Below, in pieces: positions 34,801 to 54,130 of a DNA stretch of 64,000 nucleotides. The notes beneath the pieces are model-generated. The model was not told the DNA's origin. It saw only the letters and a list, made by a program, of their open reading frames with translations, and made no database searches. Source of the DNA: an uncultured Bacilli bacterium (GTDB lineage Bacteria > Bacillota_I > Bacilli_A > RF39 > UBA660); contig CALVHY010000027.1 of assembly GCA_944329205.1 (NCBI GenBank), positions 2,636-66,635 on the forward strand, read 5' to 3'. Both the position numbers and the translations under genes were made by a program. The first letter of the stretch is position 1; each line of letters opens with the position of its first letter.

Positions 34801-34905
34801 TAAAACCGCGGTTTTACCAGAACCAGCTCCGGCCGATATAATAAGATTAGTTCCTTCTAAGTTAATTGCTAATGACTGTTCCTTCGTCCACTTCAACTTC
34901 TTCAC
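31822..34905 (-). CDS. addA: ATP-dependent helicase/nuclease subunit A (AddA/RexA)
   Basis: UvrD-type helicase motifs (AGAGSGKT...). C-terminal RecB-type nuclease (IIDLMLEYDAEIKIIDYKL). 44-nt overlap with addB. Confidence 0.85.
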   Translation of the reverse strand: MKKLKWTKEQSLAINLEGTNLIISAGAGSGKTAVLSERVLRKLKEGIDIRRILILTFTNEAAGEMKERIRKKIAAAGLTEQLLYIDSAYITTFDAYAFSIVKKYHYLFNLSSNISIIDSSIINLEKKRLLEEIIMDLYEKKDSNYLKLVGDFTVRDDTLVKEAILNISNALDLKYDKTEYLKSYIDVYYRGYYIDQLFQEYVAYLTTLTELIEADYYALEAYLSDKVRVKCYEAVSAIFKPRNYDDLYGKNINLPQFRGLESDAKEIKEDLKALVDEFNELTKYSEEELKKQIKSTKDYVCAIIDVILKLDEKIHAYKKEKAAFEFTDIAKMAIWLVKEHKSIREELRASYQEIMIDEYQDTNDLQEMFIGLIENNNVYMVGDIKQSIYRFRNANPRIFKEKYERYKNQVDGKKIDLLENFRSRREVLANINEIFKRIMIPDLGGVDYSEAHAMIYGNMAYEEKGRSNESHDLELLKYQNDDKTFSNAEIEAFIIAKDILDKVSSHYPVFDFDLGANKDATYKDFCIILDRGSDMPLYKKIFEYFNIPMEVYKDSNLTSADDIRIINNIVRLILAIYKEEYDTNMRYYFVSIARSFVGGMDDEEIFAALKENTFYENEIYKKASEIAKRLDLMSPGMLLREIIEKFSFYQKLILVGNVSDAIIRLDYLESLATSMETIGFTIEDFAEYLSQMIDKNFEIRYREARSKSDCVKIMNIHKSKGLEFPICYFAGLKKNFNLKDLQARFMFDPTYGILTPFYEDGIGTTFTKQLIKNKYLEEEIAEKIRLFYVALTRAKEKIIMVLPEFKTQNKVSVKIDYLAEIKFRSFYDFLNSMALNLAEYSKTIDLNSLELTKDYERSKVKFVKAMESQEVINFRDLHLNDKEISQKHASKAIESILSIDDAKTLKFGTQVHEMLEETDFKNTINPNKYVRHLLDTFDFQNATIYQELEFMFTKDDQEYHGIIDLMLEYDAEIKIIDYKLKNIDDDAYVKQLNVYYEYMRSVTSKNISLYLYSIIDNKVKEVEVIGL

Positions 34906-37219
34906 CTCCTAACTCTACTTCATCTTGTTTTTTCTTAAAACATAAATCGCTAAACTTACAATAAGTACAAGCGATATTCTTTTTATTTAATACTTTGGGA
35001 TTTATTTTAAACTCCCCATTCAAAATCATATCAATAGTCTCATCAATTACACCATCAACCTTCGTTATCACCTCATCCATTTCTGTATCTGATAACACCT
35101 TGGAATTAGCACTTAGACTGCCATCCTTCTTAAACTTTAAATTCAGAAGAATTTTCCCCTCTTGGTAGTTGTCATCAATCAGTTCCATGAATACTTCATT
35201 ACTGTTGGTAAATCCTTGGAGGCGCATATTATTTTCTAAAATTTCTTTACTTGTCTTTTTAAATTCAATATTTCCTTTATTAAATAATACTTTTTGAACA
35301 TAGAATCCCGCGATAGAAGCTGTGCAAAAACGATCAGATTTTTTTAGCAAATAAAGATAGATTGGCAGCTGCAAATGAAGGCCGTATGCTAAATCTTTTA
35401 AGGTAATTAAAGTAGAGCCTGTTTTATAATCAACCACCGCGATTACTTCTTTATCATGGAAAGTATTATACATTACTTTATCGATTGTTCCCTTAAAAGT
35501 AACTTTCATATCCCCTTTATCTTTATAAACAAAGAAATTATTTTCAAATAAGTAATGATTTAACTTGGAATGCCTCATCTGATTCTTTATCACATTTAAA
35601 CTCTTTTTAAGCTCTTCACTAATCATTTCCAAATAAAAATATTCTTTAGCATTTAAGTGATAATCTTGATTTTTCACAAACTTCATTATTTCCACCGGAA
35701 TATCAATTTCTTTCGTAAGTCCAAGTTCCAAAATATGATGCATTATACTACCAATAATCGTCATAAATGTTTCTTCAAATATATCTAAATGTAAAATTTT
35801 ACTAACATAATAATGAAAAGCACACTCCCGATACATCTCCATATTGGTGTATGATAAAGTAAGCTCATTATTTAAATGCGCTAGTAACATAGATGCAGGA
35901 ATACCCTTAAACTGGTTATCATAAGTAAAATAAGGAATATCTAAGTTATGTTGATAAAGGGCTAAATTATCACTTATCATGTTATATTTATATAAATTAT
36001 CTAGCGCTATGGCATATTTTATTTCACTCAAACTTTTAGCATAAGATATATCTTCATCAATAGATATGGGTAGTACTCGACTATCTAGCTCACTAATAAG
36101 CATAGATGGATAAGCTGAGCCATTGGGGCCGTTTAATTTATAAGTAATAACTAAATGTTTAGTGGATCTAATCTCGTTTAAAATGGTCGTTTTTTGATCG
36201 TTATTTACTTCCGTTGAAGTAGTTAGCCCTAAAGCATCTTTTACTTCATCACTTAAATAATCAATATCTCTTTTGATTTTAGGATAATCACTCACATTAA
36301 ACCCAAGTAAAAAAACATAATCATCATCATAAAAAGAATCACTTAAGCTACATAATTCTAAACCTTCTAAATAGACCGTTTCCTTTAATTTGGTATTTTG
36401 TAAATCATTTATAATAAATTCTTTTCTTAAAGCTTTATCTAAAACTTCTACCGATAAATTTATAATGCGGACTAACTCAGATACATTAGCGTATTTTTCT
36501 GATAGTCTTAGAACATTTTCATCGATAGAATACTCTTCATAATGATTTAAAAAGTCTCTTGCCAGTAGCGTATTATAAAAAGAATGAGTACTACGGTTAT
36601 TAAAAGGAATATGATAGAAAGATAAATATCTTGTTAATACAGAATCATATTCGTTAGATGCAATAATCTTGATGTGAGATAAAGGTATTTCCCTATCTAA
36701 TAATTTAGCAATTTCTTGGCATACAAACTCTACTTCTTGATCAATGTTAGTAGCCTCATAAACCATCGGGACATAGCTTTTGTGTAAATCATTCTCATAA
36801 AAAATATCAGCATCTATCTCTTTTAATATCAATTTTTGCTCTTTGGATAAGTTGGAATAGCCATAAACAATAATTCTTTTCCCCTTTATTGAATCTTTAA
36901 AAGATGGGTGATATATCAGTAAATTATGATTGTCTAACTGGGCTTTTAAATCAATTAAAAACTGGACTTTTTCATGATCGATATCTTTTAGAAAATATAA
37001 ATTTTCTAAATACATCTTAGCAATAGCAATATTTACGTGATACTTTTTCATAATAAAAGCAATAGTATTATTGTCATAATCAAAAAATAGCATCTTTTTA
37101 AGATTTTCAAAAGTATAAAATTTTATATTATAAAATACATGATTTTTACTATTTTCTCTTAAAATATTTTTCTTAAACTCGTTTGTTGTTATGATAATAC
37201 TTGGTTCCATTCTCATCAC
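34862..37219 (-). CDS. addB: ATP-dependent helicase/nuclease subunit B (AddB/RexB), short form
   Basis: C-terminal nuclease VVDYKTG plus Cys cluster (CTYCKFSDLC) for Fe-S. 785 aa. No Walker A recognisable. Confidence 0.7.
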   Translation of the reverse strand: MMRMEPSIIITTNEFKKNILRENSKNHVFYNIKFYTFENLKKMLFFDYDNNTIAFIMKKYHVNIAIAKMYLENLYFLKDIDHEKVQFLIDLKAQLDNHNLLIYHPSFKDSIKGKRIIVYGYSNLSKEQKLILKEIDADIFYENDLHKSYVPMVYEATNIDQEVEFVCQEIAKLLDREIPLSHIKIIASNEYDSVLTRYLSFYHIPFNNRSTHSFYNTLLARDFLNHYEEYSIDENVLRLSEKYANVSELVRIINLSVEVLDKALRKEFIINDLQNTKLKETVYLEGLELCSLSDSFYDDDYVFLLGFNVSDYPKIKRDIDYLSDEVKDALGLTTSTEVNNDQKTTILNEIRSTKHLVITYKLNGPNGSAYPSMLISELDSRVLPISIDEDISYAKSLSEIKYAIALDNLYKYNMISDNLALYQHNLDIPYFTYDNQFKGIPASMLLAHLNNELTLSYTNMEMYRECAFHYYVSKILHLDIFEETFMTIIGSIMHHILELGLTKEIDIPVEIMKFVKNQDYHLNAKEYFYLEMISEELKKSLNVIKNQMRHSKLNHYLFENNFFVYKDKGDMKVTFKGTIDKVMYNTFHDKEVIAVVDYKTGSTLITLKDLAYGLHLQLPIYLYLLKKSDRFCTASIAGFYVQKVLFNKGNIEFKKTSKEILENNMRLQGFTNSNEVFMELIDDNYQEGKILLNLKFKKDGSLSANSKVLSDTEMDEVITKVDGVIDETIDMILNGEFKINPKVLNKKNIACTYCKFSDLCFKKKQDEVELGGEEVEVDEGTVISN

Positions 37220-37339: not shown

Positions 37340-37415
37340 GCTCGTTTAGTTCAGTCGGTAGAGCGCACGGCTGTTAACCGTTAGGTCGTAGGTTCGAGTC
37401 CTACAACGAGCGCCA
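37340..37415 (+). tRNA. tRNA-Asn (anticodon GUU)
   Basis: 76 nt cloverleaf. 7-bp acceptor GCTCGTT/AACGAGC, D-arm GTTC...GAGC, anticodon loop CTGTTAA, T-arm GTAGG-TTCGAGT-CCTAC, discriminator G, encoded CCA. Confidence 0.9.
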
Positions 37416-37524: not shown

Positions 37525-37929
37525 TTATTCATAGTATCTTGAACAAGCATCACCAGCGGCAGGAGCATCTCCTTCATATTCAACATAGCATTCGCATTCA
37601 TCTCCACCAGGACTAGTAATACATGCGGCACACTTATCATATTCAGCTTCCAAATCCCCAGAGAAATCGCCAACTAATCCAAATATAGCACCAACTAAAG
37701 TAGGAACAAAGAATATAATAATACCAGCTATTGCTCTAATTGCTAAAGACTTAACAGACTTTTTAATTTCATCATCTTTACTAGCTACTACGGCCTTTCC
37801 TAAATCGATCATACCAAATATAATAATTATAATAGGAATTGCAATTTTAAAGACCCATAATATCCAACCAATAATTTGCCAAAGACCAGCTAACTCCGTG
37901 CAAAACTTTGGATCATCCATAATAAACAT
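37525..37929 (-). CDS. small two-TM secreted/membrane protein (candidate atypical pilin or VirB2/TrbC-like subunit)
   Basis: 134 aa. Two hydrophobic helices (LWQIIGWILWVFKIAIPIIIIIFGMI and LAIRAIAGIIIFFVPTLVGAIFGLV), then an acidic Cys-containing tail (CAACITSPGGDECECYVEYEGD). Last gene of the secretion-ATPase operon. No G/xxxxEY Flp motif and no GFxxxE class III signal. Confidence 0.4.
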   Translation of the reverse strand: MFIMDDPKFCTELAGLWQIIGWILWVFKIAIPIIIIIFGMIDLGKAVVASKDDEIKKSVKSLAIRAIAGIIIFFVPTLVGAIFGLVGDFSGDLEAEYDKCAACITSPGGDECECYVEYEGDAPAAGDACSRYYE

Positions 37930-38015
37930 ATAAAATTCCTCTCTTTCTAATCTATATTAATTTTATCTTAAGTTATAAACATTGTCAAGTAATTAAGATC
38001 AATTATGTCAAATAT

Positions 38016-38804
38016 CTATAAATTCATAAGTAGTAAAACAGCTAATATTAATAACACCATAACCCCAATACCTGTTGTTATTAGCATTCGCATTGTTTTA
38101 CTTTCCATTTTATCCAAACGATCTTTATACTTCGTTTCTCTTGCTTTTTGTTGTAAATTGGAAATTGTTCTTGAAAAAGCAAGTAATTGTTCTTGTTTCC
38201 GCTCTTGTCTACCTAAACTAAGCCGATAGAGCAATCTCATCATTCGCATTGAATCTCTTACTGGATATTTTCTTGCAAAATCCATATAAGGTTCAATTGT
38301 ATCATCACCTGCATTAATCGCATTAATTAATTCTTTTAATCCATCTTTAAATATATCAGGAGCATCTTCTAATGATTTACCAATTGCTACCGGTACAGTA
38401 TAATGTTGAATTAATATTTCCAAACCTTTTAAATAATAAGGAAGCATTGTATCTATTTCATGTAAATGTCTTTTATAATAATTTTTAAGATTGATATAAT
38501 CAAGTTTAAAAAAGACAAAACCAATTACAATACAAATTAAAGCATAAACATAAGACATACTTGAAATAAGTAAACAAAAGACCAATACCATAACAATTAA
38601 AGCATTTCTAATTCTTTTATTAAAAAGCAAATCCGGATTGACTGTATCTCCATATTTAGCTTTTACATAAAAATCATAATCACTTTCTTTTAATTTCCGC
38701 AAATACATTTCATTATCGGCAATTAATTTACCAATACTTATCTTTCCACTATAAGTTAATATAAAGAAAATAATCACCGCAATAACAGCTATTTCTATTT
38801 GCAT
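38016..38804 (-). CDS. TadC-like membrane protein (single T2SSF-type domain)
   Basis: 262 aa. N-terminal TM, two TM at about residues 65-100, cytoplasmic helical domain, C-terminal TM. Topology and size match TadB/TadC rather than two-domain GspF/ComGB. Confidence 0.5.
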   Translation of the reverse strand: MQIEIAVIAVIIFFILTYSGKISIGKLIADNEMYLRKLKESDYDFYVKAKYGDTVNPDLLFNKRIRNALIVMVLVFCLLISSMSYVYALICIVIGFVFFKLDYINLKNYYKRHLHEIDTMLPYYLKGLEILIQHYTVPVAIGKSLEDAPDIFKDGLKELINAINAGDDTIEPYMDFARKYPVRDSMRMMRLLYRLSLGRQERKQEQLLAFSRTISNLQQKARETKYKDRLDKMESKTMRMLITTGIGVMVLLILAVLLLMNL

Positions 38805-38805
38805 A

Positions 38806-39702
38806 TTACTCTACCCCCACATTCTCATTATAATATTTCTCTCCTGAGAGTAAAAAGTAACTATTAATAATAATTATACCATGCAAAATAATATGTACAT
38901 ACCATAAATTTAAAAGCCGTAAATAACTATCTTTACCTAGTAAAACCTGCATAACTAAAACTAGCAAAAATAATACTAAAGCAAAAGTAATGAACTTTGT
39001 ATGAAATTGTTTTCTATCCATTTGATCACGATATACTCCCTCAACCAAAGAATCAATATCCATACTCATATTTTCCAAAGACTCTCCTGAATCTTTAGCA
39101 CCCTCTTTAGTAATTTGTAAAAATAGTTGATGCATATTTTTTACCATATAATAAGGATATTTTTGGTTAAAGTACTCAATAGATTCATCAATCGTTCCAT
39201 TTTGATAAGACATGTTAATCATTGTCTTTACATCTTCTAAAACAGGATCCTCAAGTATTCCTGAATCTCTTACCCCCTCTAATGATTTAACAAAACTTTG
39301 CGTCGTATTAAATTCCATTATAACATTAGTTGTATATATTTGAATTTGTTCAAATATATATTCACTATACAATCTTTTACTACGTAAAAAAGCTAAATAA
39401 GGAATAAAAGCCACTGCAATAATCACATAAATAATAACCACAATCAAGCTATAAAAGTATAAATACGCTATAGCTGCCGCTAAGCCCCCAATAACAACTA
39501 TTTGCAAGGTATAATCTTTTACGGTATAATCTTGTTTTAATTCTTTCATTTTCGCACTTATTGTTTTATAACTATAAGGCGCATACTTTTCATATATAAC
39601 CCCAAATTGGGCCTTAGCAAACTTATAAAAGGTTTCCGTCCCATCATTTTTTCGGTATATAATAATAAACATCGCAATTAAAAATATAATTACAAATTCC
39701 AC
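38806..39702 (-). CDS. TadB-like membrane protein (single T2SSF-type domain)
   Basis: 298 aa with the same topology as its neighbour. Immediately downstream of the secretion ATPase gene. Confidence 0.5.
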   Translation of the reverse strand: MEFVIIFLIAMFIIIYRKNDGTETFYKFAKAQFGVIYEKYAPYSYKTISAKMKELKQDYTVKDYTLQIVVIGGLAAAIAYLYFYSLIVVIIYVIIAVAFIPYLAFLRSKRLYSEYIFEQIQIYTTNVIMEFNTTQSFVKSLEGVRDSGILEDPVLEDVKTMINMSYQNGTIDESIEYFNQKYPYYMVKNMHQLFLQITKEGAKDSGESLENMSMDIDSLVEGVYRDQMDRKQFHTKFITFALVLFLLVLVMQVLLGKDSYLRLLNLWYVHIILHGIIIINSYFLLSGEKYYNENVGVE

Positions 39703-39717
39703 TTGCCTAACCTCCTT

Positions 39718-40806
39718 TTATAAAGTCTCGATTGTATCTTCTGCTTTATTATTTAAATGGAACAAATCTTCATCCAAAATAACTCCTTGAATAGCTAAAT
39801 AACTTCTTAAATATTTCGTCGGATTATTCAAAGTAAATTTCCCATCTAATGTTTTTTGATAAATGGTATTTACTTGAGGTTTATTATTTTCATCTACATA
39901 AAATTCACAAATCTCCATAATTTCTCTTTGAAAACGTCCTAATTTTTCACTCATATATCCTTTTACATAAATACCTATTTGCACATAACGATGAATAGTT
40001 GTAATAAACTGTTCGACATCAATATTAGATTCAATCAAACTATACATTCGCATCGGTATTAAAGCTGCCCTATCCGAGTGAATAGTTGATATAATATGAT
40101 GTCCTGAAGAAATAGAATTACGTACTGCCATAACGGCCTCAGCACTTCTAACCTCACTTAATAATATCCAAATAGGATTTTGTCTCATACAAGTAACCAA
40201 AACTTCTGAATAAGAAGCAATGTTATTTGTTTTCATTGCTACAATATCCCGATGGGGAAAAATTCTATCTAAGTGTAACTCTAACGTATCTTCAATCGTA
40301 ATAATTTTTTCATTTTCTTTAGTTGCACTAGCTAAATACTTAACGAGCTCAGTTTTACCAGAACCAGTTTCTCCACTAACAATAATATTAGCATGTCCCT
40401 GAACGCAATTTAAGAGAAAATCGAGTAAATCCGCACTGACATATTCTTCTTTAATTAACTTATCACGATTAAGTCGAATCTTCGCTGGCGTTTTTCTAAT
40501 AACTAAAGCAATTCCATTTGTCGCAATTGAATCATGAATAAAATTAAGCCGTAACTCTGTTGATTCGGCATCTAAAAAAGGATGTGCCATATTGAATGTT
40601 TTTCCCATGACATTAGAACACTGAAAAGCTAATTTTTCGACTAAAGCATTATTTATTTCTGGCCTTTCAACCCGATAAACACCTTTAGATAAACTCTTTA
40701 ACCAAAGCTGCCCCCCATTAGTATATGATATATCCGTAATATCATCTATATCAATAAATTCTCTTAAAGGTCCAAAGTCAATTTGCGAAAATATAGCATC
40801 ATTCAT
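39718..40806 (-). CDS. secretion-system ATPase of the CpaF/TadA/VirB11 family
   Basis: Walker A GETGSGKT, Asp box IITIEDTLEL, Walker B IWILLSEVR, His box GHHIISTIHS. 362 aa. Confidence 0.8.
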   Translation of the reverse strand: MNDAIFSQIDFGPLREFIDIDDITDISYTNGGQLWLKSLSKGVYRVERPEINNALVEKLAFQCSNVMGKTFNMAHPFLDAESTELRLNFIHDSIATNGIALVIRKTPAKIRLNRDKLIKEEYVSADLLDFLLNCVQGHANIIVSGETGSGKTELVKYLASATKENEKIITIEDTLELHLDRIFPHRDIVAMKTNNIASYSEVLVTCMRQNPIWILLSEVRSAEAVMAVRNSISSGHHIISTIHSDRAALIPMRMYSLIESNIDVEQFITTIHRYVQIGIYVKGYMSEKLGRFQREIMEICEFYVDENNKPQVNTIYQKTLDGKFTLNNPTKYLRSYLAIQGVILDEDLFHLNNKAEDTIETL

Positions 40807-40844
40807 ATAAGCACCTCCTTTTCTATTCTTATTCTTTAATTATT

Positions 40845-41660
40845 TCATTCCGTAGTTGTTGTTGTACTAACTGTACTATCAGGGATCTGTTGCGCGTAGT
40901 ATTCAATTTCGTTTCGCAAGTATTCACTTGAAACTGAAGTTTCTCCAGGGTTATTCGTATAACTTGCATTTCTCGGTACTGGTATTAATTCAAGGCCACT
41001 AATATATGTTGCCACACTAAGTAATTGGAATAAATTATCTGGTACCGCAAATAATAATTCCGCTGGCGTAGCTGCTTCACTTGTTAAAAACACACTATTA
41101 CCTTGACTATCGCGAACATCAAGTATTTCGATACTTTCAATTAATTTTCCAAATATAATACTATTACTCCGACTATTCATCTTAACATATAAATCAATAT
41201 AATCTCCTGGATACATTGAATTACCATAAGTCGTATGAATATTTACGGACATTGAAAACGCAGTATAACCATCCGGCATATTTTCCAGTGGATTATTTGG
41301 TGCCGAACTACAAGAAACGACTTGTTCTGAATAGAAAAATGCCCCTTCTGGTACACTAGTACCATAAGTTACACATTTCGGATCAGACGTATTGATTAAA
41401 TCACTTTGATTAACAATCAAATTAGCTCGAGATGAAACAAAACTTCTCAACACCTCGGTTTGATCAATTGCCTCTTGGGTAATTTCTGAAGTTGCCGTAA
41501 TCGTTTGTCTTGCATAAGGAATGGATACGGTATCAATTGCTTGATCAACCCGATAATTATACCCAACATACAAAACAACAACCCCTAATAACACACCAAG
41601 TATAGTAACAGTATTCTTATTTGATAAGAATCTTTTAATCGTTGTTACAATATTTCCCAT
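40845..41660 (-). CDS. membrane-anchored protein, possibly CpaB/RcpC-like (SAF-domain)
   Basis: N-terminal TM (VTILGVLLGVVVLYVGY), then a beta-rich domain beginning VSIPYARQTITATSEITQEAIDQTEV, reminiscent of CpaB SAF domains. Immediately upstream of the ATPase. Weak call. Confidence 0.3.
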   Translation of the reverse strand: MGNIVTTIKRFLSNKNTVTILGVLLGVVVLYVGYNYRVDQAIDTVSIPYARQTITATSEITQEAIDQTEVLRSFVSSRANLIVNQSDLINTSDPKCVTYGTSVPEGAFFYSEQVVSCSSAPNNPLENMPDGYTAFSMSVNIHTTYGNSMYPGDYIDLYVKMNSRSNSIIFGKLIESIEILDVRDSQGNSVFLTSEAATPAELLFAVPDNLFQLLSVATYISGLELIPVPRNASYTNNPGETSVSSEYLRNEIEYYAQQIPDSTVSTTTTTE

Positions 41661-41674
41661 TTTATCCTACCTTT

Positions 41675-42481
41675 CTAAACGGCGCTCCAAAAACTAGCAC
41701 CGGTGCTAGAAGCACTTCTTATTCTATTATAACAAGCATTATCTTGATAATGCCACCACTCTGAAGCTAAATCAGTTAAGCCTGCATCATTCATCATATA
41801 ATTACTAAGCTTTTGCGCTCCTTCACTATTAAGCATTCCTGTTGAATAATTACTCGCCGTCTTACTAACTGCCGGACTATAATACTTAATCGCTTCGGTA
41901 CTTAACTCATGCATTGCTGATGGCATGCTATACTCACTACCAGTATTATCGCCATCACCAGCAGTGATATTATTATCTTCACCGGTATTATCACCATCAC
42001 CAGCAGTAGTATTATTATCTTCACCAGTACCAGTATTTCCATCATTATCTTCACCGGCACCATTATTACTATCACCAACTTCATCTGCAAAGATTTGAAT
42101 AATCGCATCTATTCTTGTAATCGTATCATAATCTCCCGCTGATATAAAGTTTGTGCCACTATTTGATCTAACCTCAACACTTACTTTTGGTGGAGCTTCA
42201 TATATATCATAGAAATTAACTTCATAAGTATCTGTTGTTCCCATTACTTCGGCTGTCATTCTAATGAAAACTTCCATAAATTTTTCTTTATTCATTTTTA
42301 TTTCGTTGTAATCTCGATAATAAGCATAATCTACCGCTTCTAACATTGATGCTTCCACAATTTCTCTTATCGCATAATTATCCTGGGTAGTGTTAGTTGT
42401 AATGCCTTGCACTGAGATCATCAAACCTATTATCGCAACACCCATTACAACTAACCAATAACCCCAATATGAACTTTGCAT
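41675..42481 (-). CDS. N-terminally anchored protein with acidic Gly/Asp/Asn tandem repeats (TadE/pseudopilin-like?)
   Basis: N-terminal hydrophobic segment (YWLVVMGVAIIGLMISV). Central repeats GEDNNTTAGDGDNTGEDNNITAGDGDNTG encoded by about 45-nt tandem DNA repeats (about 41940-42075). Confidence 0.3.
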   Translation of the reverse strand: MQSSYWGYWLVVMGVAIIGLMISVQGITTNTTQDNYAIREIVEASMLEAVDYAYYRDYNEIKMNKEKFMEVFIRMTAEVMGTTDTYEVNFYDIYEAPPKVSVEVRSNSGTNFISAGDYDTITRIDAIIQIFADEVGDSNNGAGEDNDGNTGTGEDNNTTAGDGDNTGEDNNITAGDGDNTGSEYSMPSAMHELSTEAIKYYSPAVSKTASNYSTGMLNSEGAQKLSNYMMNDAGLTDLASEWWHYQDNACYNRIRSASSTGASFWSAV

Positions 42482-42500
42482 AATTAATTACTCCCCTTTC

Positions 42501-45500
42501 CTACTTCCATGAAGGACCTATCATATTTTGTTCAGAAATACCACTAGTCCATAATTCGAAGTATTCGGTATTATTATTACTTTCGGTCCGGTAATTACGA
42601 TTCATAATTAAACTACGATTATTAACAATTTCCGAATTATTTATAAATACTTGATTATTATAAGTAATTGTTCCATCAATTAAATCACTAATAAAGTTAC
42701 TGTAACAAGCTATTTCATCATAATCCCCGATCGTATAACAAGAAAGTGTTGCATTTGAATATCCGCCGCGATTATTTTTTTCCGCCTCATCATTATACTC
42801 TCTTATAGCTCTTGCGGTACTTGGTGTAATCGTAACACTTAAAATTGGATCTTCGGCATAAATACTATCACCAGCATTTTGAATTTGTTCAATAGTTGTC
42901 TGAGCCTTAGCATTTACATCTCGATTCCAGTTATATGATTTTGTACCATTAGGGAACAAGTTAGTAAGGGAAACAACTCTTTCAATCAACGATGAGCCAG
43001 CCTGATTATCATAAATACAACCTGCACCAATACAATCTGCTACACAATCAGATCCATCACAATCATAATTACAATTTGGCCCCACACAATTAGCCGTACA
43101 ATCATCACCATTACAACTATCCCAATCACACACGATTGTATAATTCTCTTCTATACCCATATTAACTAAATACGCACACATATACTGAACGGTACCATTT
43201 TCATCTACAAATTCGGCATAGTCTTCCTCATTAATAACCGCCGTATCGCCACCAATTAATCGACCTAAACTACCATTTCGATCATAATATTCCCCAAGAT
43301 TCGTAATATTTACTGTATATTCATAAATACCTCTTCTTGTACTCAAACTAACTGGCAATTTATTTTCCAAAGCCGTTGCATTTTCGTTATTTTCCCCTTC
43401 ATCACGATCAACTATTTCACCACTTGGATAAACATTATAAAACAATGTCGATGGCACATAATTAACATTAATCGTTGAAGTTACTTTTTTATATGAAGCA
43501 TTTGATATTTCTTCTCGTTTAAATGAACAACCACTCTCATCACAATAAACATAATCTATTAAAGCTGTACTTTCATCAGTTGAACCACTACAACTATCAT
43601 AACCATTATTTATTGTTCCGTAAGTATAATTTCCATTAGCCAGTGATCCATTACAATACCACTCGGTTGTATTATCACTCGTAATGGTATCATCCATTTC
43701 CCCATGATTATTATAATGATCCGCCAAATAATCCTCGGCATAATCATAATAAATAGTTGGATCATAGTTAATATCCGTTGTCCAATTAGAACATCCATTA
43801 TAATCACTAATTATTTGATTGTAATTATCTATCGCCGTTTGTAAAGCACTTCTTGCCGTACTTAAATCTCCGCCATAGCGATTATTATAATCTTGAGTAT
43901 AAGATACACTACTACATGAACCACTATAACCAGAACAATTACAACTGCTACATGAGCCACTACCAAACGATAAAGTTTCATTATGCGTGGAGGCAACTCC
44001 ACTATAACTATAAGTTACATAACTAAATGTTTTTTGCGCTGTACTCCATGAACAACTTCTTCTTCCACTTGAACGGCATACTCTAGTACAACTACTACCA
44101 CTACTAGTAGCATTATTATTCTCATCATCTTCTGTACAAATTTCCTCTGAATAACAACCTGTACTATATGAACATGATCTTGAACTTACGTTGGTAAAAC
44201 TTGCACTATCTAGCGCCCTTAATCTTGCATAAGTATTATAAGCATCAACTAAAGCTCTTTGTGCTTGTTCAATATCAGCTTCATATAATTCCCGATCAAT
44301 CGTATTTGTATAACATGTCTTTGTCCCACTAACCGCTGCACTAAACGTAAAGTATCTACCGGCATTAACAAGTTTAGCTGTTGGCATGTTCATAATATAA
44401 TCTTCTTTACAAGATACTACACAATATTTATTTTTCTGTAGAGTATAAGAATTTTCCTCATCATCACTTACTCCGGCAGCATTTTCATATCCTGTCGTTG
44501 CATCCCTATAACCATCAATTTGATTTACAAAGCAAATTTTTGCTTCCTCAGGACCAGTTATTGATACTGGATGGTTATCAACTGTTGAAATAATCAAATT
44601 ATTTTCCGCATCACAACACTCAAATGCCGTTACGGAAGTTGTACAACCAACACTACAATTTTCATAATAAGCTTGGCATGCCTCATCATCACCTAAAACA
44701 TTACATTCAATTTCTAATTCGGCACACTCACCGCAATTAGCATCCAATAACTCTTGACAAGCATCCCCTTCTAAATTGCCCGTTTCTTCAGCTTCAATCG
44801 TACAAGCTTCAATCAAATCATCACAATCACATACATCAATTAAACTAACCGAACCTGTTAATTCGCCCGTTACGTCTTGACTAACCGCCTCTGATACTTC
44901 ATCAACACTTAAAAACCGTTGATATTGTGTTCCCCAAGCATCAGCATATATATTATCCCAAACAATACCTACATAATTGCTGTATTTACCATTCGCTGAA
45001 GTATCACTATAAGTATAACTCATCGTATAAGACATTGGTTGTTGCCCACAATTAAGCTTATTATAAGTGTTTTGATATCCAGCGTTTACATTTTCATATC
45101 CTGTAAATTCTATTACAATTTCCACGGTTATCTCATCTGGAATACTATCTAAAACTCTTAAAATATTATCCCCATAATTAAAATCATAAGCATCTGTATA
45201 AGATATACCATTAACGGTAATTTCCACAATTCTTGGCTGTTCATTTACACCTAAAACATCCAAACTTTGATCATATGTAAGATCATTTATAACAAAAGAA
45301 GCATTTCCATCGTTTGTAAAATTACGTAAAGTCAAAGTTCTTTTTATTTGTAAATTTACACTATCACCAATTGCTGTTGACTCATTATTAATTGCAACTT
45401 GTTCCGTTAAAACATTATCATCAATACTAGCTCCCCCATCATTATCCATATACTCTGCCGCATCTGCTAAAGCTTGTGCATATAGTTGTTTAGCTTTATT

Positions 45501-46238
45501 AAGTATTGCTTCTGCTCGCTCATCATTTGTATTTGTAGAACTATACCAAACTGGTTGGAATGAATACAATGAATAATCTTCTAAAACTGATAAATCCAAA
45601 GTATATTGACTTAAAGCATCATAACTAGCTCTAATTCCTGAATCACCTGTAATCCAATTATAAGCTTGACCAAAATAAGTTTCATATAGTAAAGACCAAC
45701 CGTTTTTATCATAACCCCAAGTTGCTACAATTGATCTAACTGCAATACTTGTTGCTAAATAATCATCAGACGTATGATCATTTCTCTCACCGTTAACTAA
45801 TGCACTTAAAATAGCCATATCAAAAGCCTTAACGCCTGGTTCTGGATCGCTTAGTAAAAATCTTTTGGCAAATACTGTATCAAATCCTCCTGTAGCATCG
45901 GAATCTAAACAATACATCGCAAGACCATAACGATCGTAATGAGAATAAAGAGATGCATAGCTTGTCCAAGAATAATTATTGCCGTCATTTACATCTCCAC
46001 TTCCTGAATATTGTCTAATTAATAAATTATAATTAGAAAGATTAGAACGACTAAATCCCTTTGAAACAGTTGTACTTACCCCTGCCACATAATTATGTAA
46101 CTCTGCATTACCTGTCGCTGTTATCGTCCCATAAGTAGCACCATATCTTGTCTCGGCTGCTTCAACTTTTAAACTAAAACCTAAAGTGATAACTAAAGCA
46201 ATGATAATATAACTGACTTTTTTTAACATATTTTTCAT
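42501..46238 (-). CDS. giant secreted Cys-rich protein (1245 aa), candidate adhesin/tip protein
   Basis: Cleavable signal peptide (IIIALVITLGFSLKVEA). Three dense Cys clusters (about residues 470-550, 690-790, 1050-1100). YCLD motif near residue 110. No C-terminal anchor. Confidence 0.6.
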   Translation of the reverse strand: MKNMLKKVSYIIIALVITLGFSLKVEAAETRYGATYGTITATGNAELHNYVAGVSTTVSKGFSRSNLSNYNLLIRQYSGSGDVNDGNNYSWTSYASLYSHYDRYGLAMYCLDSDATGGFDTVFAKRFLLSDPEPGVKAFDMAILSALVNGERNDHTSDDYLATSIAVRSIVATWGYDKNGWSLLYETYFGQAYNWITGDSGIRASYDALSQYTLDLSVLEDYSLYSFQPVWYSSTNTNDERAEAILNKAKQLYAQALADAAEYMDNDGGASIDDNVLTEQVAINNESTAIGDSVNLQIKRTLTLRNFTNDGNASFVINDLTYDQSLDVLGVNEQPRIVEITVNGISYTDAYDFNYGDNILRVLDSIPDEITVEIVIEFTGYENVNAGYQNTYNKLNCGQQPMSYTMSYTYSDTSANGKYSNYVGIVWDNIYADAWGTQYQRFLSVDEVSEAVSQDVTGELTGSVSLIDVCDCDDLIEACTIEAEETGNLEGDACQELLDANCGECAELEIECNVLGDDEACQAYYENCSVGCTTSVTAFECCDAENNLIISTVDNHPVSITGPEEAKICFVNQIDGYRDATTGYENAAGVSDDEENSYTLQKNKYCVVSCKEDYIMNMPTAKLVNAGRYFTFSAAVSGTKTCYTNTIDRELYEADIEQAQRALVDAYNTYARLRALDSASFTNVSSRSCSYSTGCYSEEICTEDDENNNATSSGSSCTRVCRSSGRRSCSWSTAQKTFSYVTYSYSGVASTHNETLSFGSGSCSSCNCSGYSGSCSSVSYTQDYNNRYGGDLSTARSALQTAIDNYNQIISDYNGCSNWTTDINYDPTIYYDYAEDYLADHYNNHGEMDDTITSDNTTEWYCNGSLANGNYTYGTINNGYDSCSGSTDESTALIDYVYCDESGCSFKREEISNASYKKVTSTINVNYVPSTLFYNVYPSGEIVDRDEGENNENATALENKLPVSLSTRRGIYEYTVNITNLGEYYDRNGSLGRLIGGDTAVINEEDYAEFVDENGTVQYMCAYLVNMGIEENYTIVCDWDSCNGDDCTANCVGPNCNYDCDGSDCVADCIGAGCIYDNQAGSSLIERVVSLTNLFPNGTKSYNWNRDVNAKAQTTIEQIQNAGDSIYAEDPILSVTITPSTARAIREYNDEAEKNNRGGYSNATLSCYTIGDYDEIACYSNFISDLIDGTITYNNQVFINNSEIVNNRSLIMNRNYRTESNNNTEYFELWTSGISEQNMIGPSWK

Positions 46239-46993
46239 TCTACCTTACTCCTTCGCTTTCTTATTATCACATAAACAGTCAATCCCCCAATTACGACAAT
46301 TGCTACACCTACACCTATAACTATTGCTAGATTATCTTGAATAAAATCAAAGAAGCCTTCTTCTTCCGAATCTATTGGTTCTTCCACTTCTTCGCCACTA
46401 TCATCAATTTGACCTGCATTATATCGCTCGATCAATTCGACAAACCTACCGAAATCAACACTTGGCACTGATAAAAAAGTATTACATAAATAAAAGTCTT
46501 CATTACCATCACATAATCTATATTGGCTATATTCATTATACATTGGTGTTGTCAAATATAGTGTATACAATTCGGTATTAGCACAATTAGTATTACTAGA
46601 ACTATAAACGGTAATAGTAAAATTAGTAATCGCCAAAATATTAGTCCAATCCAAACTAATCGTTCCATTATCACTATCCTGGTAAGTATAAGTTTGAACT
46701 TGATCATCAACATCATTTTCTACTGTAATGTATAAATCTTCTGTTAAATTACTAATATAAATACGAAAGAAACTATAATATGCCACATACTCCTCTAACT
46801 CCTCTTCCGTTAAGCCATCGGGAGCTGAATACTCACCTTCCAGCTCTTCCCTCATCACTTCATAGCTCGCTCTAACATTAGCTGCCAAACTATTAAGGGT
46901 ATTTGTTTCGCTTGCATCACATACTGCATAAACTACATTACTGTTTACCAAAAAAAGTAACAGGGCCAAAATTAACGCATTAATTTTTTTCAT
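46235..46993 (-). CDS. secreted protein with C-terminal TM anchor and basic tail
   Basis: Start placed at MKKINALILALLLFLVNSNVVYA (signal peptide). C-terminus LAIVIGVGVAIVVIGGLTVYVII-RKRRSKVE. ATGA overlap with the giant protein gene. Confidence 0.5.
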   Translation of the reverse strand: MKKINALILALLLFLVNSNVVYAVCDASETNTLNSLAANVRASYEVMREELEGEYSAPDGLTEEELEEYVAYYSFFRIYISNLTEDLYITVENDVDDQVQTYTYQDSDNGTISLDWTNILAITNFTITVYSSSNTNCANTELYTLYLTTPMYNEYSQYRLCDGNEDFYLCNTFLSVPSVDFGRFVELIERYNAGQIDDSGEEVEEPIDSEEEGFFDFIQDNLAIVIGVGVAIVVIGGLTVYVIIRKRRSKVE

Positions 46994-47018
46994 AGTATAC
47001 ACCAACCTCATATTCAAA

Positions 47019-47047
47019 ATTATAACATGTAACTTCCTTTTTTTCAA
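47019..47047 (-). promoter_or_regulatory. sigma-A consensus promoter TTGAAA-17-TATAAT driving the 47-37.5 kb operon
   Basis: Minus strand TTGAAA (47047-47042), 17-nt spacer, TATAAT (47024-47019). About 25-nt leader with GAGGTTGGTG RBS before ATG 46993. Confidence 0.55.
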
Positions 47048-47081
47048 CATAAATAAAAGAAAAAAGAAGCCAAAAAGCCCC

Positions 47082-50105: not shown

Positions 50106-50183
50106 CTCTAGCCATAACTATATCACAAAAAACTCTAACTTTCAAATTAAATTCATATAAAAAGCACTAACTTGGCGTTAATG

Positions 50184-50873
50184 CTATATTTTATAAACTT
50201 TATTAGCTTTTCTACTAAATAAATATATTACTCCGATTACTACTAATCCCCCTAAAATAGCAATATAAGGAACTACACTACCTGTCTCACTATTTGGAAT
50301 ATCATTAGGATCACTTACATTACTACAAACACTTTGATATTCTGCCTCAGTTATAGAATTACCATTATCATCAAAGTAATAACCAGGAATATCTACACTA
50401 CAATCTAAACTAAGTGGTGACACATTAAGCATACAACCTGTATCAGCAGTATCAGTTGTAACTACACTTATAGTTATACTAGATGAAGCACTAGAAACAC
50501 CACTAGGTTCTAATAACACATAAGTTCCTGCCTCAGCTGTCTGCGTATCCGCTACCAAATAACTTGAACTAGTACTATTTACACTAACACTATCAATACT
50601 TACACTATTAGGAACTAATAAAAAGTAAATATACCCATTAGTATTACTTACATCAAAAGTAATACTCCAAGTCTTAATACCTGCATCCTCATCCGTATAA
50701 GTCCACGTATAATCCCCAGCCGCGACCGTTCCATACTGGCCCATTGAAATGGCCTCATCACTTACATAAACTCCATCCCCATCATTATCATTAAAATCTA
50801 CGGCCCAAACATCAGTTGGCACCAAAAAAATTGTTGTAAGAAAAATTCCTAGTATCAAAATTAACTTTTTCAT
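50184..50873 (-). CDS. secreted surface protein with C-terminal sorting-signal-like tail
   Basis: Signal peptide. C-terminus DIPNSETGS-VVPYIAILGGLVVIGVIYLF-SRKANKVYKI (motif, hydrophobic stretch, basic tail). Divergent neighbour of the sortase-B fusion gene. Confidence 0.5.
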   Translation of the reverse strand: MKKLILILGIFLTTIFLVPTDVWAVDFNDNDGDGVYVSDEAISMGQYGTVAAGDYTWTYTDEDAGIKTWSITFDVSNTNGYIYFLLVPNSVSIDSVSVNSTSSSYLVADTQTAEAGTYVLLEPSGVSSASSSITISVVTTDTADTGCMLNVSPLSLDCSVDIPGYYFDDNGNSITEAEYQSVCSNVSDPNDIPNSETGSVVPYIAILGGLVVIGVIYLFSRKANKVYKI

Positions 50874-50959
50874 ATAACCTCTTCCTTTACTATTATTATG
50901 TCCTAATTATATCATAAAAATGTAAAAAATAAATATCTTTTTTAAAAATATTTAAAAAA

Positions 50960-52606
50960 ATGTCAATCTATGATATGATATTAATGGTGAATAGTGTGAA
51001 AAAGATATTAATTAGCCTTTATAACAACTCTATTTTCTTTTCTTATAAAACTAATAATAGTTCTATTAGTAATGATTTAATTAATACAAACATCATTAGC
51101 AATAACGAACTTATTTTTAGCGATATTTATATTTCGGAAAACTCCAAAATTATTGCCTCCTTTTTAAAAGAATTAACAATCCAATACAATATTTCTAAAG
51201 CAATAATTAGTAAAATCGACTTAAGTCCCTTAGTATTAAGTTTACTTAAAAAAGCAACCAACATAACTGCGGTAGAAATAAAAGAAGATGAGACTTTAAC
51301 CTATAGTATTTGCGAAGCTTTAATTGAATTAAATCATATCAAAAGTCTTAATTGTTACAATCTCCAACCCTTTATGATTGAACTATTAGACAAATTCGGT
51401 ATTACCTGCACCTCTCGTTGTGAAATTCTTTATTTAAGCAATTTTATGGAAACTAACAATCTTTTACGTTATTCAAATATCTATTATAAAACGACAATTC
51501 GCATAACCTTCCCCTTATCTTTAGAAGATTTAAAAGATCTTGAAGACTTCTTCAAAATCAACAAATACTTAAAAGTTATTCATATAAACAAATTGATTAA
51601 CAATGAACTCGAAAACTTAATCAATCTTCTCATAAAATTTAATCGTCATAATTTAAAAATTGTTATTCATGAAAATATAACTGATGAAAAAACCGCCGAA
51701 TATCTACGAACTAAAAACAAAACTTACAAAAAGAAATATAAAATTTATTTATCATTAGAATACACCCAAGAATATTTAGATCGCAATATCTTTCGGCAAG
51801 CTATAACCAACACCTTAAAAATATGTGGCCTCATCGTCAGTAGTCTTGTTATTTTAGTTGTAACCTACATTGGAATATCTAATTTTATTGCTTTAAAACA
51901 AGTTGATGCTATCAAACAAGATCTTGCCGAAGTAATAGAAGTAACTGATCCTACCGAAATTATTGAACAAAAAAACGAAGAAAACAAAGAAAATGCTTTG
52001 ATAGAACAAACTCCTATTGAAGAAATCAAAATGATTACCAACCAAGAACTAGCCTCCTTATTGACAGTAAATGAAGATGTTGTCGGTGAATTAGTGGTCA
52101 ATAACACCAATGTTGATTATCCTGTTGTTCAAGCAAACGATAACGATTACTATTTAGATCATAATATCAACAAAGAAAGTAATGCTAACGGCTGGATTTA
52201 CCTTGATTTTCGTAATGACGCAATGAACCTTGACAAAAACAACATTATATATGGTCATAACATGTATTATAGTGGTGTTATGTTTGGAACTCTTTATAAA
52301 ACAGCTACTTCCAGTTGGTATACTAATCCTGATAACCAAATTATTACTTACAATACTTTATATGAAAACATGGAATTTCAAATTTTCTCTATTTATCGCG
52401 TTCCAGAAACAAATGATTATCTCAAAGTCTTTTTTGACGATGATGCTGATTTCTTAGAATTTATTGATATGATTACTTCCCGCAGCATTTATGATTTTAA
52501 TGTCCCTATACAAGCTGATGATAAAATCATAACTTTATCAACATGTAGCAATAATGGAACGAAAAGATTAGTAATCCATGCTGTTTTAAAAAATAATACA
52601 GAGTAA
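50960..52606 (+). CDS. sortase B-family transpeptidase fused to a large N-terminal LRR-like cytoplasmic domain
   Basis: C-terminal roughly 190 aa: DYPVVQANDNDYYLDHNINKESNANGWIYLDFRN...IYGHNM...ITLSTCS...RLVIHAVL (His, Cys, Arg catalytic triad in class B order). TM at about residues 290-315. N-terminal roughly 280 aa is Leu/Ile/Asn-rich and repeat-like. Confidence 0.65.
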   Translation: MSIYDMILMVNSVKKILISLYNNSIFFSYKTNNSSISNDLINTNIISNNELIFSDIYISENSKIIASFLKELTIQYNISKAIISKIDLSPLVLSLLKKATNITAVEIKEDETLTYSICEALIELNHIKSLNCYNLQPFMIELLDKFGITCTSRCEILYLSNFMETNNLLRYSNIYYKTTIRITFPLSLEDLKDLEDFFKINKYLKVIHINKLINNELENLINLLIKFNRHNLKIVIHENITDEKTAEYLRTKNKTYKKKYKIYLSLEYTQEYLDRNIFRQAITNTLKICGLIVSSLVILVVTYIGISNFIALKQVDAIKQDLAEVIEVTDPTEIIEQKNEENKENALIEQTPIEEIKMITNQELASLLTVNEDVVGELVVNNTNVDYPVVQANDNDYYLDHNINKESNANGWIYLDFRNDAMNLDKNNIIYGHNMYYSGVMFGTLYKTATSSWYTNPDNQIITYNTLYENMEFQIFSIYRVPETNDYLKVFFDDDADFLEFIDMITSRSIYDFNVPIQADDKIITLSTCSNNGTKRLVIHAVLKNNTE

Positions 52607-54130
52607 TTATTTACCCTGTATTTTTTCTTTTTTCCTAACCAATCTCGAAATATTTGTTTGAATAGGAATATTAGCTAGTTCATATAACTTGTCCATCATT
52701 CTTATAAATTCATCTTTATCAATTTCCATCTCCCAAATAACTCTTTTATTTTTAAATTCTTTATCCACCCAAGTTTGCTTTTTTTTCTGATAATGTTTCA
52801 AGTGAATATCTCGACCGGTAATATACATTCTAACTTTATTTTCTAAAAATTCTATTTGATTATGGACAATAGCTGTTCTAATATTCCAAAAAAGTCTTTT
52901 ATCATCTTCTTCCTTTAAAACTTCATCTAACAAGTTCGTATAATTCCTAATCAAACCCAGCAAATAATTTTTATACTCTTCTGGGCCCTTATATAAACAT
53001 ACTTCCTCATAGCTTCTTTTTATTGCTTTTATATAATCTTTATATATATTTTTGGCATGAACAAAATGCGCATCAAACGAAAAATTAAGAGCAAGATATT
53101 TTTTTAAATCTCCATCGCTATCAGCATATACATAAACACCAGCAAACAATATATTGGCATAAACTTTTAACAAATAATCTTTTAGATCACGTAAAATATA
53201 TATATCATCAACATCGCATCCATCCCCATCTAAAACTTTTAAAATCGCATTAACAAATATGGCATTTCCTGAATAAATATCTTTTAATCGTATTTTATTA
53301 ATCAAATATTGCAATTTTCCTTCATAGCTTAACGCTTCAAAACCATCGCTATTTAAATTAATATTTAATTTTTCCTTATCAAGTATTTCTAAAGAAATAA
53401 AATTACCAAAATCATTTTGAATTTTTTGTAAATAATCTTTAAACTGCCGCCATACATCTTGAACTTCTTTAGTTAAACTTAGACTAAATTTTCCTATTTC
53501 TCTTTGAACATTTAAAAATATCAAATCAAAAGTATACTTTTCACTCGGGATATTGGGATTATTAAAATAACTAGCCATAAGCGATGCATTACTACTCATC
53601 AGCTTAACTTGGCAAAATAATATATAGCCTAAATCCCAAGCTTCCTTAAAATCCATCGTGTCATCTTTATTTTTAGGTACAAAAGACAAATTGACAATGT
53701 CACTCATGCCCTTTTTAAGTTCACCTCTACAATTGGCCACTGTTGATAAAACTAAATCTGAAAACCAATTTAAATTAAAATAGGTTTCTTCATCATCACC
53801 TATATAAATATAACCATCTTGAAACCTAAAACTTTTATGGGCTAGTTTATCTCTTATTTTTTTAAACTGTTCTTTTAAACCAAGCTTAGATAAAGAATGA
53901 TATATTCTCTCTGGTGTTAAATCTAAAAATACTTTTTCTAAAACAAAATTAGGAACATTTTCCCACAAGCCATCCATATTATTATTAAAAAGTGTAAGTA
54001 AACACCACAATTTAACTTCATCCCGAGACTCTTTAATTACTTCCAAATAAATTGGATTAGGTTTATTGGCATATTTTAATAAATACCTAATTCCCAAAGC
54101 TGCTTTCGCTTCCCCCATATAATCCATCAA
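52607..54130 (-). CDS. hypothetical protein with two internally repeated Rx4H (HEPN-like) motifs
   Basis: 507 aa. IRDKLAHKSFRF (R93-H98) and IRTAIVHNQIEF (R418-H423) share a similar local context. No other family recognised. Confidence 0.35.
   Translation of the reverse strand: MMDYMGEAKAALGIRYLLKYANKPNPIYLEVIKESRDEVKLWCLLTLFNNNMDGLWENVPNFVLEKVFLDLTPERIYHSLSKLGLKEQFKKIRDKLAHKSFRFQDGYIYIGDDEETYFNLNWFSDLVLSTVANCRGELKKGMSDIVNLSFVPKNKDDTMDFKEAWDLGYILFCQVKLMSSNASLMASYFNNPNIPSEKYTFDLIFLNVQREIGKFSLSLTKEVQDVWRQFKDYLQKIQNDFGNFISLEILDKEKLNINLNSDGFEALSYEGKLQYLINKIRLKDIYSGNAIFVNAILKVLDGDGCDVDDIYILRDLKDYLLKVYANILFAGVYVYADSDGDLKKYLALNFSFDAHFVHAKNIYKDYIKAIKRSYEEVCLYKGPEEYKNYLLGLIRNYTNLLDEVLKEEDDKRLFWNIRTAIVHNQIEFLENKVRMYITGRDIHLKHYQKKKQTWVDKEFKNKRVIWEMEIDKDEFIRMMDKLYELANIPIQTNISRLVRKKEKIQGK

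Follow-up and report, generated by a model that had tools for sequence, protein, structure and literature searches.

Sortases, familiar from textbooks and of use both as drug targets and in protein engineering, are pictured as a catalytic domain carried on a short membrane anchor, their specificity coming from an extracellular pentapeptide. Among class B enzymes, the SrtB proteins of Bacillus anthracis and Staphylococcus aureus have chains of 215-254 residues with a short N-terminal anchor, and each is dedicated to one neighbouring substrate, IsdC, with the motif NPKTG in the former and NPQTN in the latter. The SrtB of Clostridioides difficile, which is not haem-linked, also has a short anchor (chains of 221-242 residues) and serves several substrates scattered in the genome. 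Here we describe a locus of an uncultured Bacilli bacterium (RF39; UBA660) in which a class B sortase is fused to a conserved, probably cytoplasmic domain of about 270 residues and stands back to back with the gene of a candidate substrate. The locus lies in a window of 64,000 nt, by which we mean the whole stretch analysed (assembly GCA_944329205.1, contig CALVHY010000027.1, positions 2,636-66,635 of the forward strand), and positions are counted from the first letter of this window. The fused enzyme resembles the B. anthracis and S. aureus systems in its class B domain, its catalytic triad and its pairing with one neighbouring substrate; it differs from them in the added domain, in the absence of an isd haem-uptake context, and in having a substrate that lacks a NEAT domain and whose tail is conserved in sequence. 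With the C. difficile enzyme it shares the lack of a link to haem, but neither the short anchor nor the scattered substrates. To our knowledge no sortase with a large conserved cytoplasmic domain has been reported; a literature search found none described, which is not proof of absence. We also know of no membrane-tethered cytoplasmic leucine-rich repeat (LRR) protein attached to a sortase.

Sequence and structure comparisons strongly support the fused protein as a genuine class B sortase that is intact and anchored as a type II membrane protein. Residues 336-538 score 158.2 bits against the class B sortase model TIGR03064 (MEROPS class C60B; cutoff 153.75), the Pfam Sortase model matches with an E-value of 7.8e-13, and among solved structures the closest relative is SrtB of B. 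anthracis (2oqw, E 1.2e-35), with which the catalytic segments align in register (YGHNM with YGHRM, LSTCS with LSTCD, RLVIHA with RLVVHA). When a full-length AlphaFold model was compared with solved structures by Foldseek, the top 16 matches were all class B sortases (probability 1.00, template modelling (TM) score on the target 0.49-0.58), the first non-sortase matches being NLRP3 and SKP2; the predicted local distance difference test (pLDDT) of this model is only 40-80 across the sortase domain, and its predicted TM-score (pTM) of 0.44 gives no confidence in the inter-domain geometry. His433 and Cys529 are invariant in 84 family members, and the column of Arg536 holds arginine in 73 and lysine in 9 of them, the lysines probably reflecting a one-column alignment shift. 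The original prediction of a bona fide class B sortase behind a transmembrane segment, with its triad in place, is therefore upheld. The catalytic half is an ordinary class B sortase; what is atypical for the class is an anchor preceded by 270 residues, the solved class B chains among the matches being 175-254 residues long. A distant relative (L132:6914-8320) has a degenerate catalytic region in which TLSTC has become TIRAC, and phmmer no longer sees a sortase in it.

Locus comparison indicates that the fusion is real and old. We examined 84 intact loci, that is, 80 returned by a scan in which each GTDB species was represented by a single genome, the window itself and 3 metagenomic loci; the pattern used for the scan, [LI]NTN[VI]IS, was picked from the family alignment. 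In 84 out of 84 the N-terminal domain (N-domain) and the sortase lie within one open reading frame (ORF) of 400-579 codons, nearly all of 500-579, and a metagenome scan added about 30 more distant fused genes, also as single ORFs. The full-length architecture is common to more than 100 clusters (90% identity) at 71-87% identity, and relatives with an N-terminal identity of only 36-49% retain the transmembrane helix and the sortase domain. Two related contigs do carry the gene split by a frameshift (L004, 10001-11558; L103, 1111-2812); these copies may be pseudogenes or assembly errors. They are the one observation that speaks for two genes fused artificially in sequencing or assembly, or for a non-coding N-terminal region. 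Such a frameshift or assembly artefact is ruled out by the continuous ORFs, both in the 84 loci, which come from independent assemblies, and in the distant ones, and by an N-domain that is under purifying selection and folds confidently, so that the chance of it is negligible, and the long N-terminal region belongs to the same protein, as had been proposed.

Genomes encoding the N-domain proved to be numerous. The species scan found the N-domain in 188 species-level genomes, all of them metagenome-assembled genomes from the gut, labelled "Bacilli bacterium", "Tenericutes" or "Mycoplasma sp. CAG:776", and a profile search of 1.84 billion representative sequences returned 248 clusters at 50% identity, with full-length members of 507-565 residues. 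Across loci the neighbouring genes include SpoIVA, SpoVIF, Cse60, Mur ligases, a MurJ/SpoVB-like protein, a PBP and LCP. Neighbours of this sort argue that the hosts are walled and spore-forming, despite the "Tenericutes" labels.

The fused gene most likely starts at the GTG codon at 50996 rather than at the ATG at 50960, since in an alignment of 12 intergenic regions a GGTGA Shine-Dalgarno sequence is invariant 5-6 nt before this codon, which is GTG in the window and ATG in L018, and since L016 and L021 have an in-frame TAA ahead of it. The resulting protein of 536 residues (M/V-KKILI…) agrees with the N-termini of the homologues. The ORF first described, 50960..52606, is present as given; only its start codon would move.

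The N-domain is probably cytoplasmic, if the sortase domain is outside, because the protein has a single transmembrane helix, no signal peptide ahead of it and more positive charge on its N-terminal side (family net charge +1.4 before the helix and -0.3 after). The helix is the sole hydrophobic segment, with a Kyte-Doolittle peak of 2.57 and nothing else above threshold. As judged from our searches, the domain is an undescribed family. Neither Pfam nor NCBIfam gave a match for residues 13-285 of the window protein, for 35 aligned members or for 10 divergent full-length members; no Pfam LRR family appeared at E<=1 in any of the 35; a profile search of PDB sequences returned LRRC34 alone (E 0.39); and comparison of the domain with itself by hhalign gave no significant internal sequence repeat. 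A flag for PF13800 (Sigma_reg_N) on P0120 was discarded, being a sub-threshold match that falls on the transmembrane region.

AlphaFold2, run on the 35-sequence alignment, modelled the domain with a pLDDT of 89.2 and a pTM of 0.80 as an N-terminal β-hairpin followed by eight strand-helix units, the strands beginning at residues 80, 104, 129, 149, 179, 206, 232 and 262 (full-length numbering), each followed by a helix, with a period of 20-30 residues. A solenoid of strand-helix units of this length is found in LRR proteins such as SKP2, ribonuclease inhibitor and the NLR proteins, from which the N-domain differs in having neither an LRR hidden Markov model (HMM) match nor a sequence repeat. Foldseek against the PDB gave weak matches only (E ~1e-3, TM-score ~0.2-0.3), the best being SKP2 (E 8.8e-4, probability 0.87, TM-score 0.22), with NLRP3, NLRP7, NAIP, the C-terminal domain of tropomodulin and SDS22 among the others. 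"LRR-like β-α solenoid" is thus a fair description of the predicted fold. The original prediction had called the domain LRR-like, and this is weakly supported, by the modelled solenoid and by the nature of its best structural matches; the LxxLxLxxN/CxL consensus was not recognised by LRR profile models, and the sequence has no detectable repeat.

Within the family the mean pairwise identity of the N-domain is 53%, close to that of the catalytic domain (60%) and above that of the linker with the transmembrane helix (40%), which argues for purifying selection on the N-domain. Its most conserved stretch is [LI]NTN[VI]IS (residues 41-47), with N42 and T43 invariant, and this stretch falls in the only loop with a pLDDT below 50. 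The combination of highest conservation and predicted disorder suggests a putative binding site. A loop that becomes ordered on binding would also suit a regulatory role for the N-domain, in which a cytoplasmic ligand alters the activity or the oligomeric state of the extracellular sortase through the membrane, and AlphaFold2 does draw a long continuous helix (residues 270-328) from the N-domain through the membrane. We consider such an inside-out switch improbable: the domain shows neither a signature of ligand binding or catalysis nor a motif for nucleotide binding, the low pTM of the full-length model says nothing reliable on how the domains are arranged, and a single-pass helix with a poorly conserved linker of about 50 residues is a poor conformational transmitter.

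We then turned to the divergent gene (50184..50873). The locus comparison makes a firm case that its product and the fused enzyme are a dedicated sortase-substrate pair. In about 72 of the 76 loci having upstream sequence, the divergent neighbour encodes a protein of 173-315 residues with a signal peptide and a C-terminal sorting signal, so that the secreted protein with sorting-signal architecture noticed at first is conserved in position. The signal peptide consists of MKK, a hydrophobic core and VWA, with K2, K3 and P19 nearly invariant. The window protein ends in NSETG, a transmembrane segment (residues 200-219) and the tail SRKANKVYKI. When 74 unique orthologues were aligned on TG, T and G were invariant (74/74); position -2 was P in 40, T in 13, V in 10 and S in 9, position -3 was N in 29, E in 15 and S in 13, and position +5 was P in 70. 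In 73 of the 74 the C-terminus lay 33 residues from T, and the last ten residues followed [ST][KR]K[NSK][NKT]K[MVLI]YKI, with K at -5 in 73, Y at -3 in 65 and I at -1 in 64.

The motif had been taken as non-canonical. The orthologues correct this, their consensus being N-P-x-T-G; NSETG is a variant of it, and a motif of class B type. Close relatives read NSPETG, SPETG, NSQTG or NPKTG, and several orthologues have exactly NPKTG. Variations of NPXTG are the motif type of class B (PMC11987632), and the C. difficile enzyme recognizes SPxTG and PPxTG (PMC8225981); SPETG, SPDTG and SPKTG of our close relatives fit its (S/P)PxTG pattern. Downstream of the motif the signals differ from what is required by B. 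anthracis SrtB, which needs Asp at P2' (PMC11987632), whereas the substrates of the fused enzyme have S or A at P2' and Pro at P5'. Curated sorting-signal models match the C-terminal 40 residues of 12-20 of 32 substrates, all below their cut-offs (best E-values 1.8e-4 for LPXTG_anchor, TIGR01167; 2.1e-4 for Rumino_NPXTG, NF033846; 5.8e-7 for EF0750_LPXTG), and the window substrate reaches 15.9 bits against a cutoff of 47. Sub-cutoff matches were also seen with TIGR03065 (srtB_sig_QVPTGV), a distant clade having VPKTG, and none of the NCBIfam sorting-signal models describes the tail ...KxxKxYKI-COOH. On this alignment the signal is best placed in the NPxTG class, as a new sub-type marked by a tail of unusual constancy.

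The remainder of the substrate behaves quite differently. The mature domain (~170 residues) is hypervariable between species, the mean column identity of the whole protein being 22%, with a conserved Cys pair, and the first 300 nt of the gene have a nucleotide identity of 47% even among close relatives. A hypervariable mature domain joined to a nearly fixed sorting signal of 33 residues is the pattern expected of a surface antigen under diversifying pressure.

Across about 1 Mb of sequence from related loci, the divergent neighbour is the sole carrier of the tail, apart from one tandem duplicate (L076). A profile search with the 40-residue tail for further substrates returned 7 short fragments only and was uninformative. 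The original prediction had placed a second, similar tail in the Tad-like operon of the window; the protein concerned (46235..47050, 271 residues) has a C-terminal transmembrane segment and a basic end (…IIRKRRSKVE), carries neither an xTG motif nor a YKI end, was missed by the tail scan and is rejected as a second substrate of this kind. More distant clades of the fused enzyme have an NPKTG, SPKTG or VPKTG substrate adjoining or near the sortase gene, with tails ending …FPQA, …FKQI or …NGK[EQK][NC]. In six loci (L094, L095, L105, L107, L113 and L123) the likely substrate is a convergent gene ~1.5 kb downstream of the fused sortase, whose product of 529-709 residues ends …VP[KTA]TGL[ST]STLTY…[KR]NGK[EQK][NC], a QVPTGV-like class B signal with a conserved tail of its own.

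From established class B sortase chemistry, the fused enzyme very probably cleaves this substrate and transfers it to the wall. The protein of 229 residues would be exported through its signal peptide and held in the membrane by the sorting signal, that is, by NSETG, the transmembrane segment and the basic tail. The extracellular sortase domain (His433/Cys529/Arg536) would then cut between T197 and G198, the peptide DIPNSETGSVVP being the would-be target of the catalytic domain, cut after Thr; an acyl-enzyme would form on Cys529, and the mature domain of ~170 residues would be passed to a peptidoglycan precursor. Since some class B sortases polymerise pilins (PMC3019223), we also considered whether the enzyme is of the pilus type, as are Spy0129 of Streptococcus pyogenes and the SrtB of the type II pilus of S. 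pneumoniae, with its neighbour as the pilin that it polymerises. The substrate is small, probably a β-sandwich, and encoded beside the sortase, and 4y4q is among the fold matches. However, no Lys is conserved in the mature substrate, the only nearly invariant ones (K2, K3 and K225) belonging to the signal peptide or the tail, and this speaks against a pilin; a pilin motif resembling YPKN is missing too. The conserved module comprises one substrate gene and lacks tip pilins, base pilins and a SipA-like gene, and the nearest catalytic relatives are the anchoring enzymes of B. anthracis, S. aureus and Listeria. A pilus-type enzyme is therefore very improbable.

The DNA between the two genes points to a pair that is co-regulated as an independent unit beside lysS. 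These 122 bp have a mean pairwise identity of 81%, as compared with 74-75% in the sortase coding sequence and 47% in the 5' coding sequence of the substrate gene, and a promoter region so conserved and shared argues for co-expression. It contains a promoter-like TTTAAA-17-TATGAT with a TG, and inverted copies of TATGATAT at 50909-50916 and 50974-50981, 57 nt apart, which could be the matched -10 boxes of the two promoters; boxes and conservation together suggest matched divergent promoters or a shared operator. Along with this region, the terminator-like hairpins that close both genes are the basis for regarding the pair as a unit. The lysS gene lies directly downstream of the substrate gene, and this synteny is preserved in 56 of the 69 loci with sufficient upstream sequence. 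Scans with Rfam and for tRNAs found nothing relevant near the sortase locus.

Altogether, we consider it rather probable that the locus is a conserved two-gene surface-display module of an uncultured, spore-forming lineage of gut Bacilli. As the exposed domain of the substrate diverges and the tail hardly changes, the tail is probably read by something in the cytoplasm. The solenoid is the only conserved cytoplasmic element of the module, and such solenoids bind proteins and peptides; for these reasons we favour, tentatively, docking of the tail ([ST][KR]KxxKxYKI-COOH) by the N-domain, which would act as a protein-binding module at the inner face of the membrane. The enzyme would then grip its one substrate on either face of the membrane at once, or would keep hold of the C-terminal piece left after cleavage. 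A wider form of this proposal is more doubtful still: recognition on both faces, with the catalytic domain reading NPxTG and the LRR-like domain binding …KxxKxYKI-COOH so as to capture the precursor or to keep the C-peptide as a signal, and with the stand-alone, tail-anchored form of the module serving other envelope-attachment enzymes (LCP, LtaS).

Several points weigh against this explanation of the locus. The same N-domain occurs with different tails (FPQA, FKQI, NGKxN) in the distant clades, so that there is no universal reading of the tail. A basic tail is generic to sorting signals, and part of its conservation could reflect shared ancestry. Membership of the LRR superfamily is weakly supported (TM-scores of 0.2-0.3 and no HMM match), stand-alone N-domain proteins with a transmembrane segment are located away from any sortase or substrate, and our view of the genome is one of 64 kb, so that further substrates or sortases may lie elsewhere. 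Lastly, mimicry did not explain the tail. The sortase segment NKTYKKKYKI (residues 253-262), at the start of the last solenoid strand, resembles the substrate tail RKANKVYKI (50187-50216) and was the best match in 49 of 71 pairs, but the median z was 1.2 against shuffled tails; the likeness is mostly one of lysine-rich composition, and the idea that the tail mimics this segment was dropped. There is an anecdotal parallel: at window positions 51728-51748 (residues 257-263) the sortase reads xHL in the clade whose substrates end in YHV and xNKI in the clade whose substrates end in FNR[IL].

Part of this evidence fits the main alternative, to which the stand-alone copies near envelope-biogenesis genes give some support and in which the N-domain is a localisation or scaffolding module that binds the division, wall-synthesis or secretion machinery and places the sortase at new wall without touching the substrate. 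In cocci, sortases concentrate at septa and secretion foci. Proteins consisting of an N-domain and a C-terminal transmembrane segment, without sortase, do exist (278-304 residues; L085:6001-6861, L090:7001-7855, also L087-L093). One (L085/L086) comes directly after an operon of LtaS, a 203-residue protein and LCP, and another (L090/L091) lies between a mraZ-rsmH-ftsL-PBP cluster, from which it diverges, and a PrsA-like foldase. The coexistence of one N-domain with several substrate tails is likewise what a localisation module would allow. These two are, however, the only informative stand-alone contexts, the L085 copy is followed by a transposase and could be a truncated fusion, and the conservation of the substrate's cytoplasmic tail is left unexplained. 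We thus hold a purely localising N-domain to be possible but not likely. When the stand-alone form was used as the seed of a metagenome scan, to widen the set of contexts, nearly all of the genes recovered were fused ones.

The logic of the proposed module has parallels in the exosortase/PEP-CTERM, archaeosortase/PGF-CTERM and rhombosortase/GlyGly-CTERM systems, where an enzyme is co-inherited with targets bearing a motif, a transmembrane segment and a basic tail, as was described for PEP-CTERM proteins with their tripartite signal (PMC1569441). Those enzymes are unrelated polytopic membrane proteins, whereas the fused enzyme is a genuine sortase.

The family described here is a large one in which a conserved cytoplasmic domain has been added to a sortase; it counts at least 188 genomes at species level and, at 50% identity, 248 clusters. 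Every fused enzyme has as its partner a single fast-evolving surface protein with an all but unchanging cytoplasmic tail. If the N-domain does read the tail, there would be a second, intracellular layer of sortase specificity, and a function for the charged tail that is normally taken as a mere stop-transfer signal. If it localises the enzyme instead, it would represent a hitherto unrecognised adaptor in the envelope assembly of uncultured gut Bacilli. The N-domain merits its own family definition whichever role holds, and the pair offers a handle on a hypervariable surface antigen, probably exposed to host or phage, of common uncultured gut bacteria. The features of the locus are collected in Table 1.

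Table 1. Positions of the features of the fused sortase locus, counted within the window.
Feature	Position	Strand	Basis
Fused N-domain-sortase gene	50996..52606	+	ORF list and intergenic alignment
Mechanical ORF of the fused gene	50960..52606	+	ATG start, 548 aa
Predicted cytoplasmic N-domain, aa 13-285	50996..51814	+	AlphaFold2 model; no family match
[LI]NTN[VI]IS motif, aa 41-47	51080..51100	+	family alignment
Single transmembrane helix, aa 288-306	51821..51877	+	Kyte-Doolittle
Class B sortase catalytic domain, aa 336-543	51965..52588	+	TIGR03064, 2oqw, Foldseek
Triad codons His433; Cys529; Arg536	52256-52258; 52544-52546; 52565-52567	+	
Candidate substrate gene, 229 aa	50184..50873	-	divergent neighbour
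Substrate signal peptide, aa 1-24 (…TDVWA/V)	50802..50873	-	read from sequence
Substrate cell-wall sorting signal, aa 194-229	50187..50294	-	74-orthologue alignment
NSETG motif of the substrate	50280-50294	-	within sorting signal
Divergent promoter region, 122 bp	50874..50995	between both genes	12-relative alignment
Terminator-like hairpin 3' of the substrate gene, between substrate gene and lysS	50163..50185	-	
Terminator-like hairpin, convergent junction of sortase gene and 507-aa gene	52595..52622	-	

The window has a G+C content of ~30%, and nearly all of its genes are on the minus strand. Convergent with the sortase gene is a gene for a protein of 507 residues (52607-54130), whose only match is the ABC-3C middle component MC7 at 14.8 bits. 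We considered it as a third component of the module and rejected it, as none but the 17 closest relatives have a detectable copy and it belongs to no family. A Tad-like cluster occupies 37525-47050 on the minus strand. It includes a T2SSE/CpaF-like ATPase (39718-40806), an RcpC/CpaB-like protein (40845-41660), a protein with DUF5411 and Peptidase_M15 (41675-42481) and two probable membrane proteins without family (38016-39702); upstream in the cluster lie a Cys-rich secreted protein of 1245 residues (42501-46238) and the C-terminally anchored protein of 271 residues rejected above, neither with a family match. Elsewhere, a UvrD-like helicase (31822-34905) and a PD-(D/E)XK nuclease (34862-37219) resemble an AddA/AddB pair, and the window also carries LemA (31039-31590), a DUF2207 membrane protein (29091-30998) and tRNA-Asn(GTT) (37340-37415).

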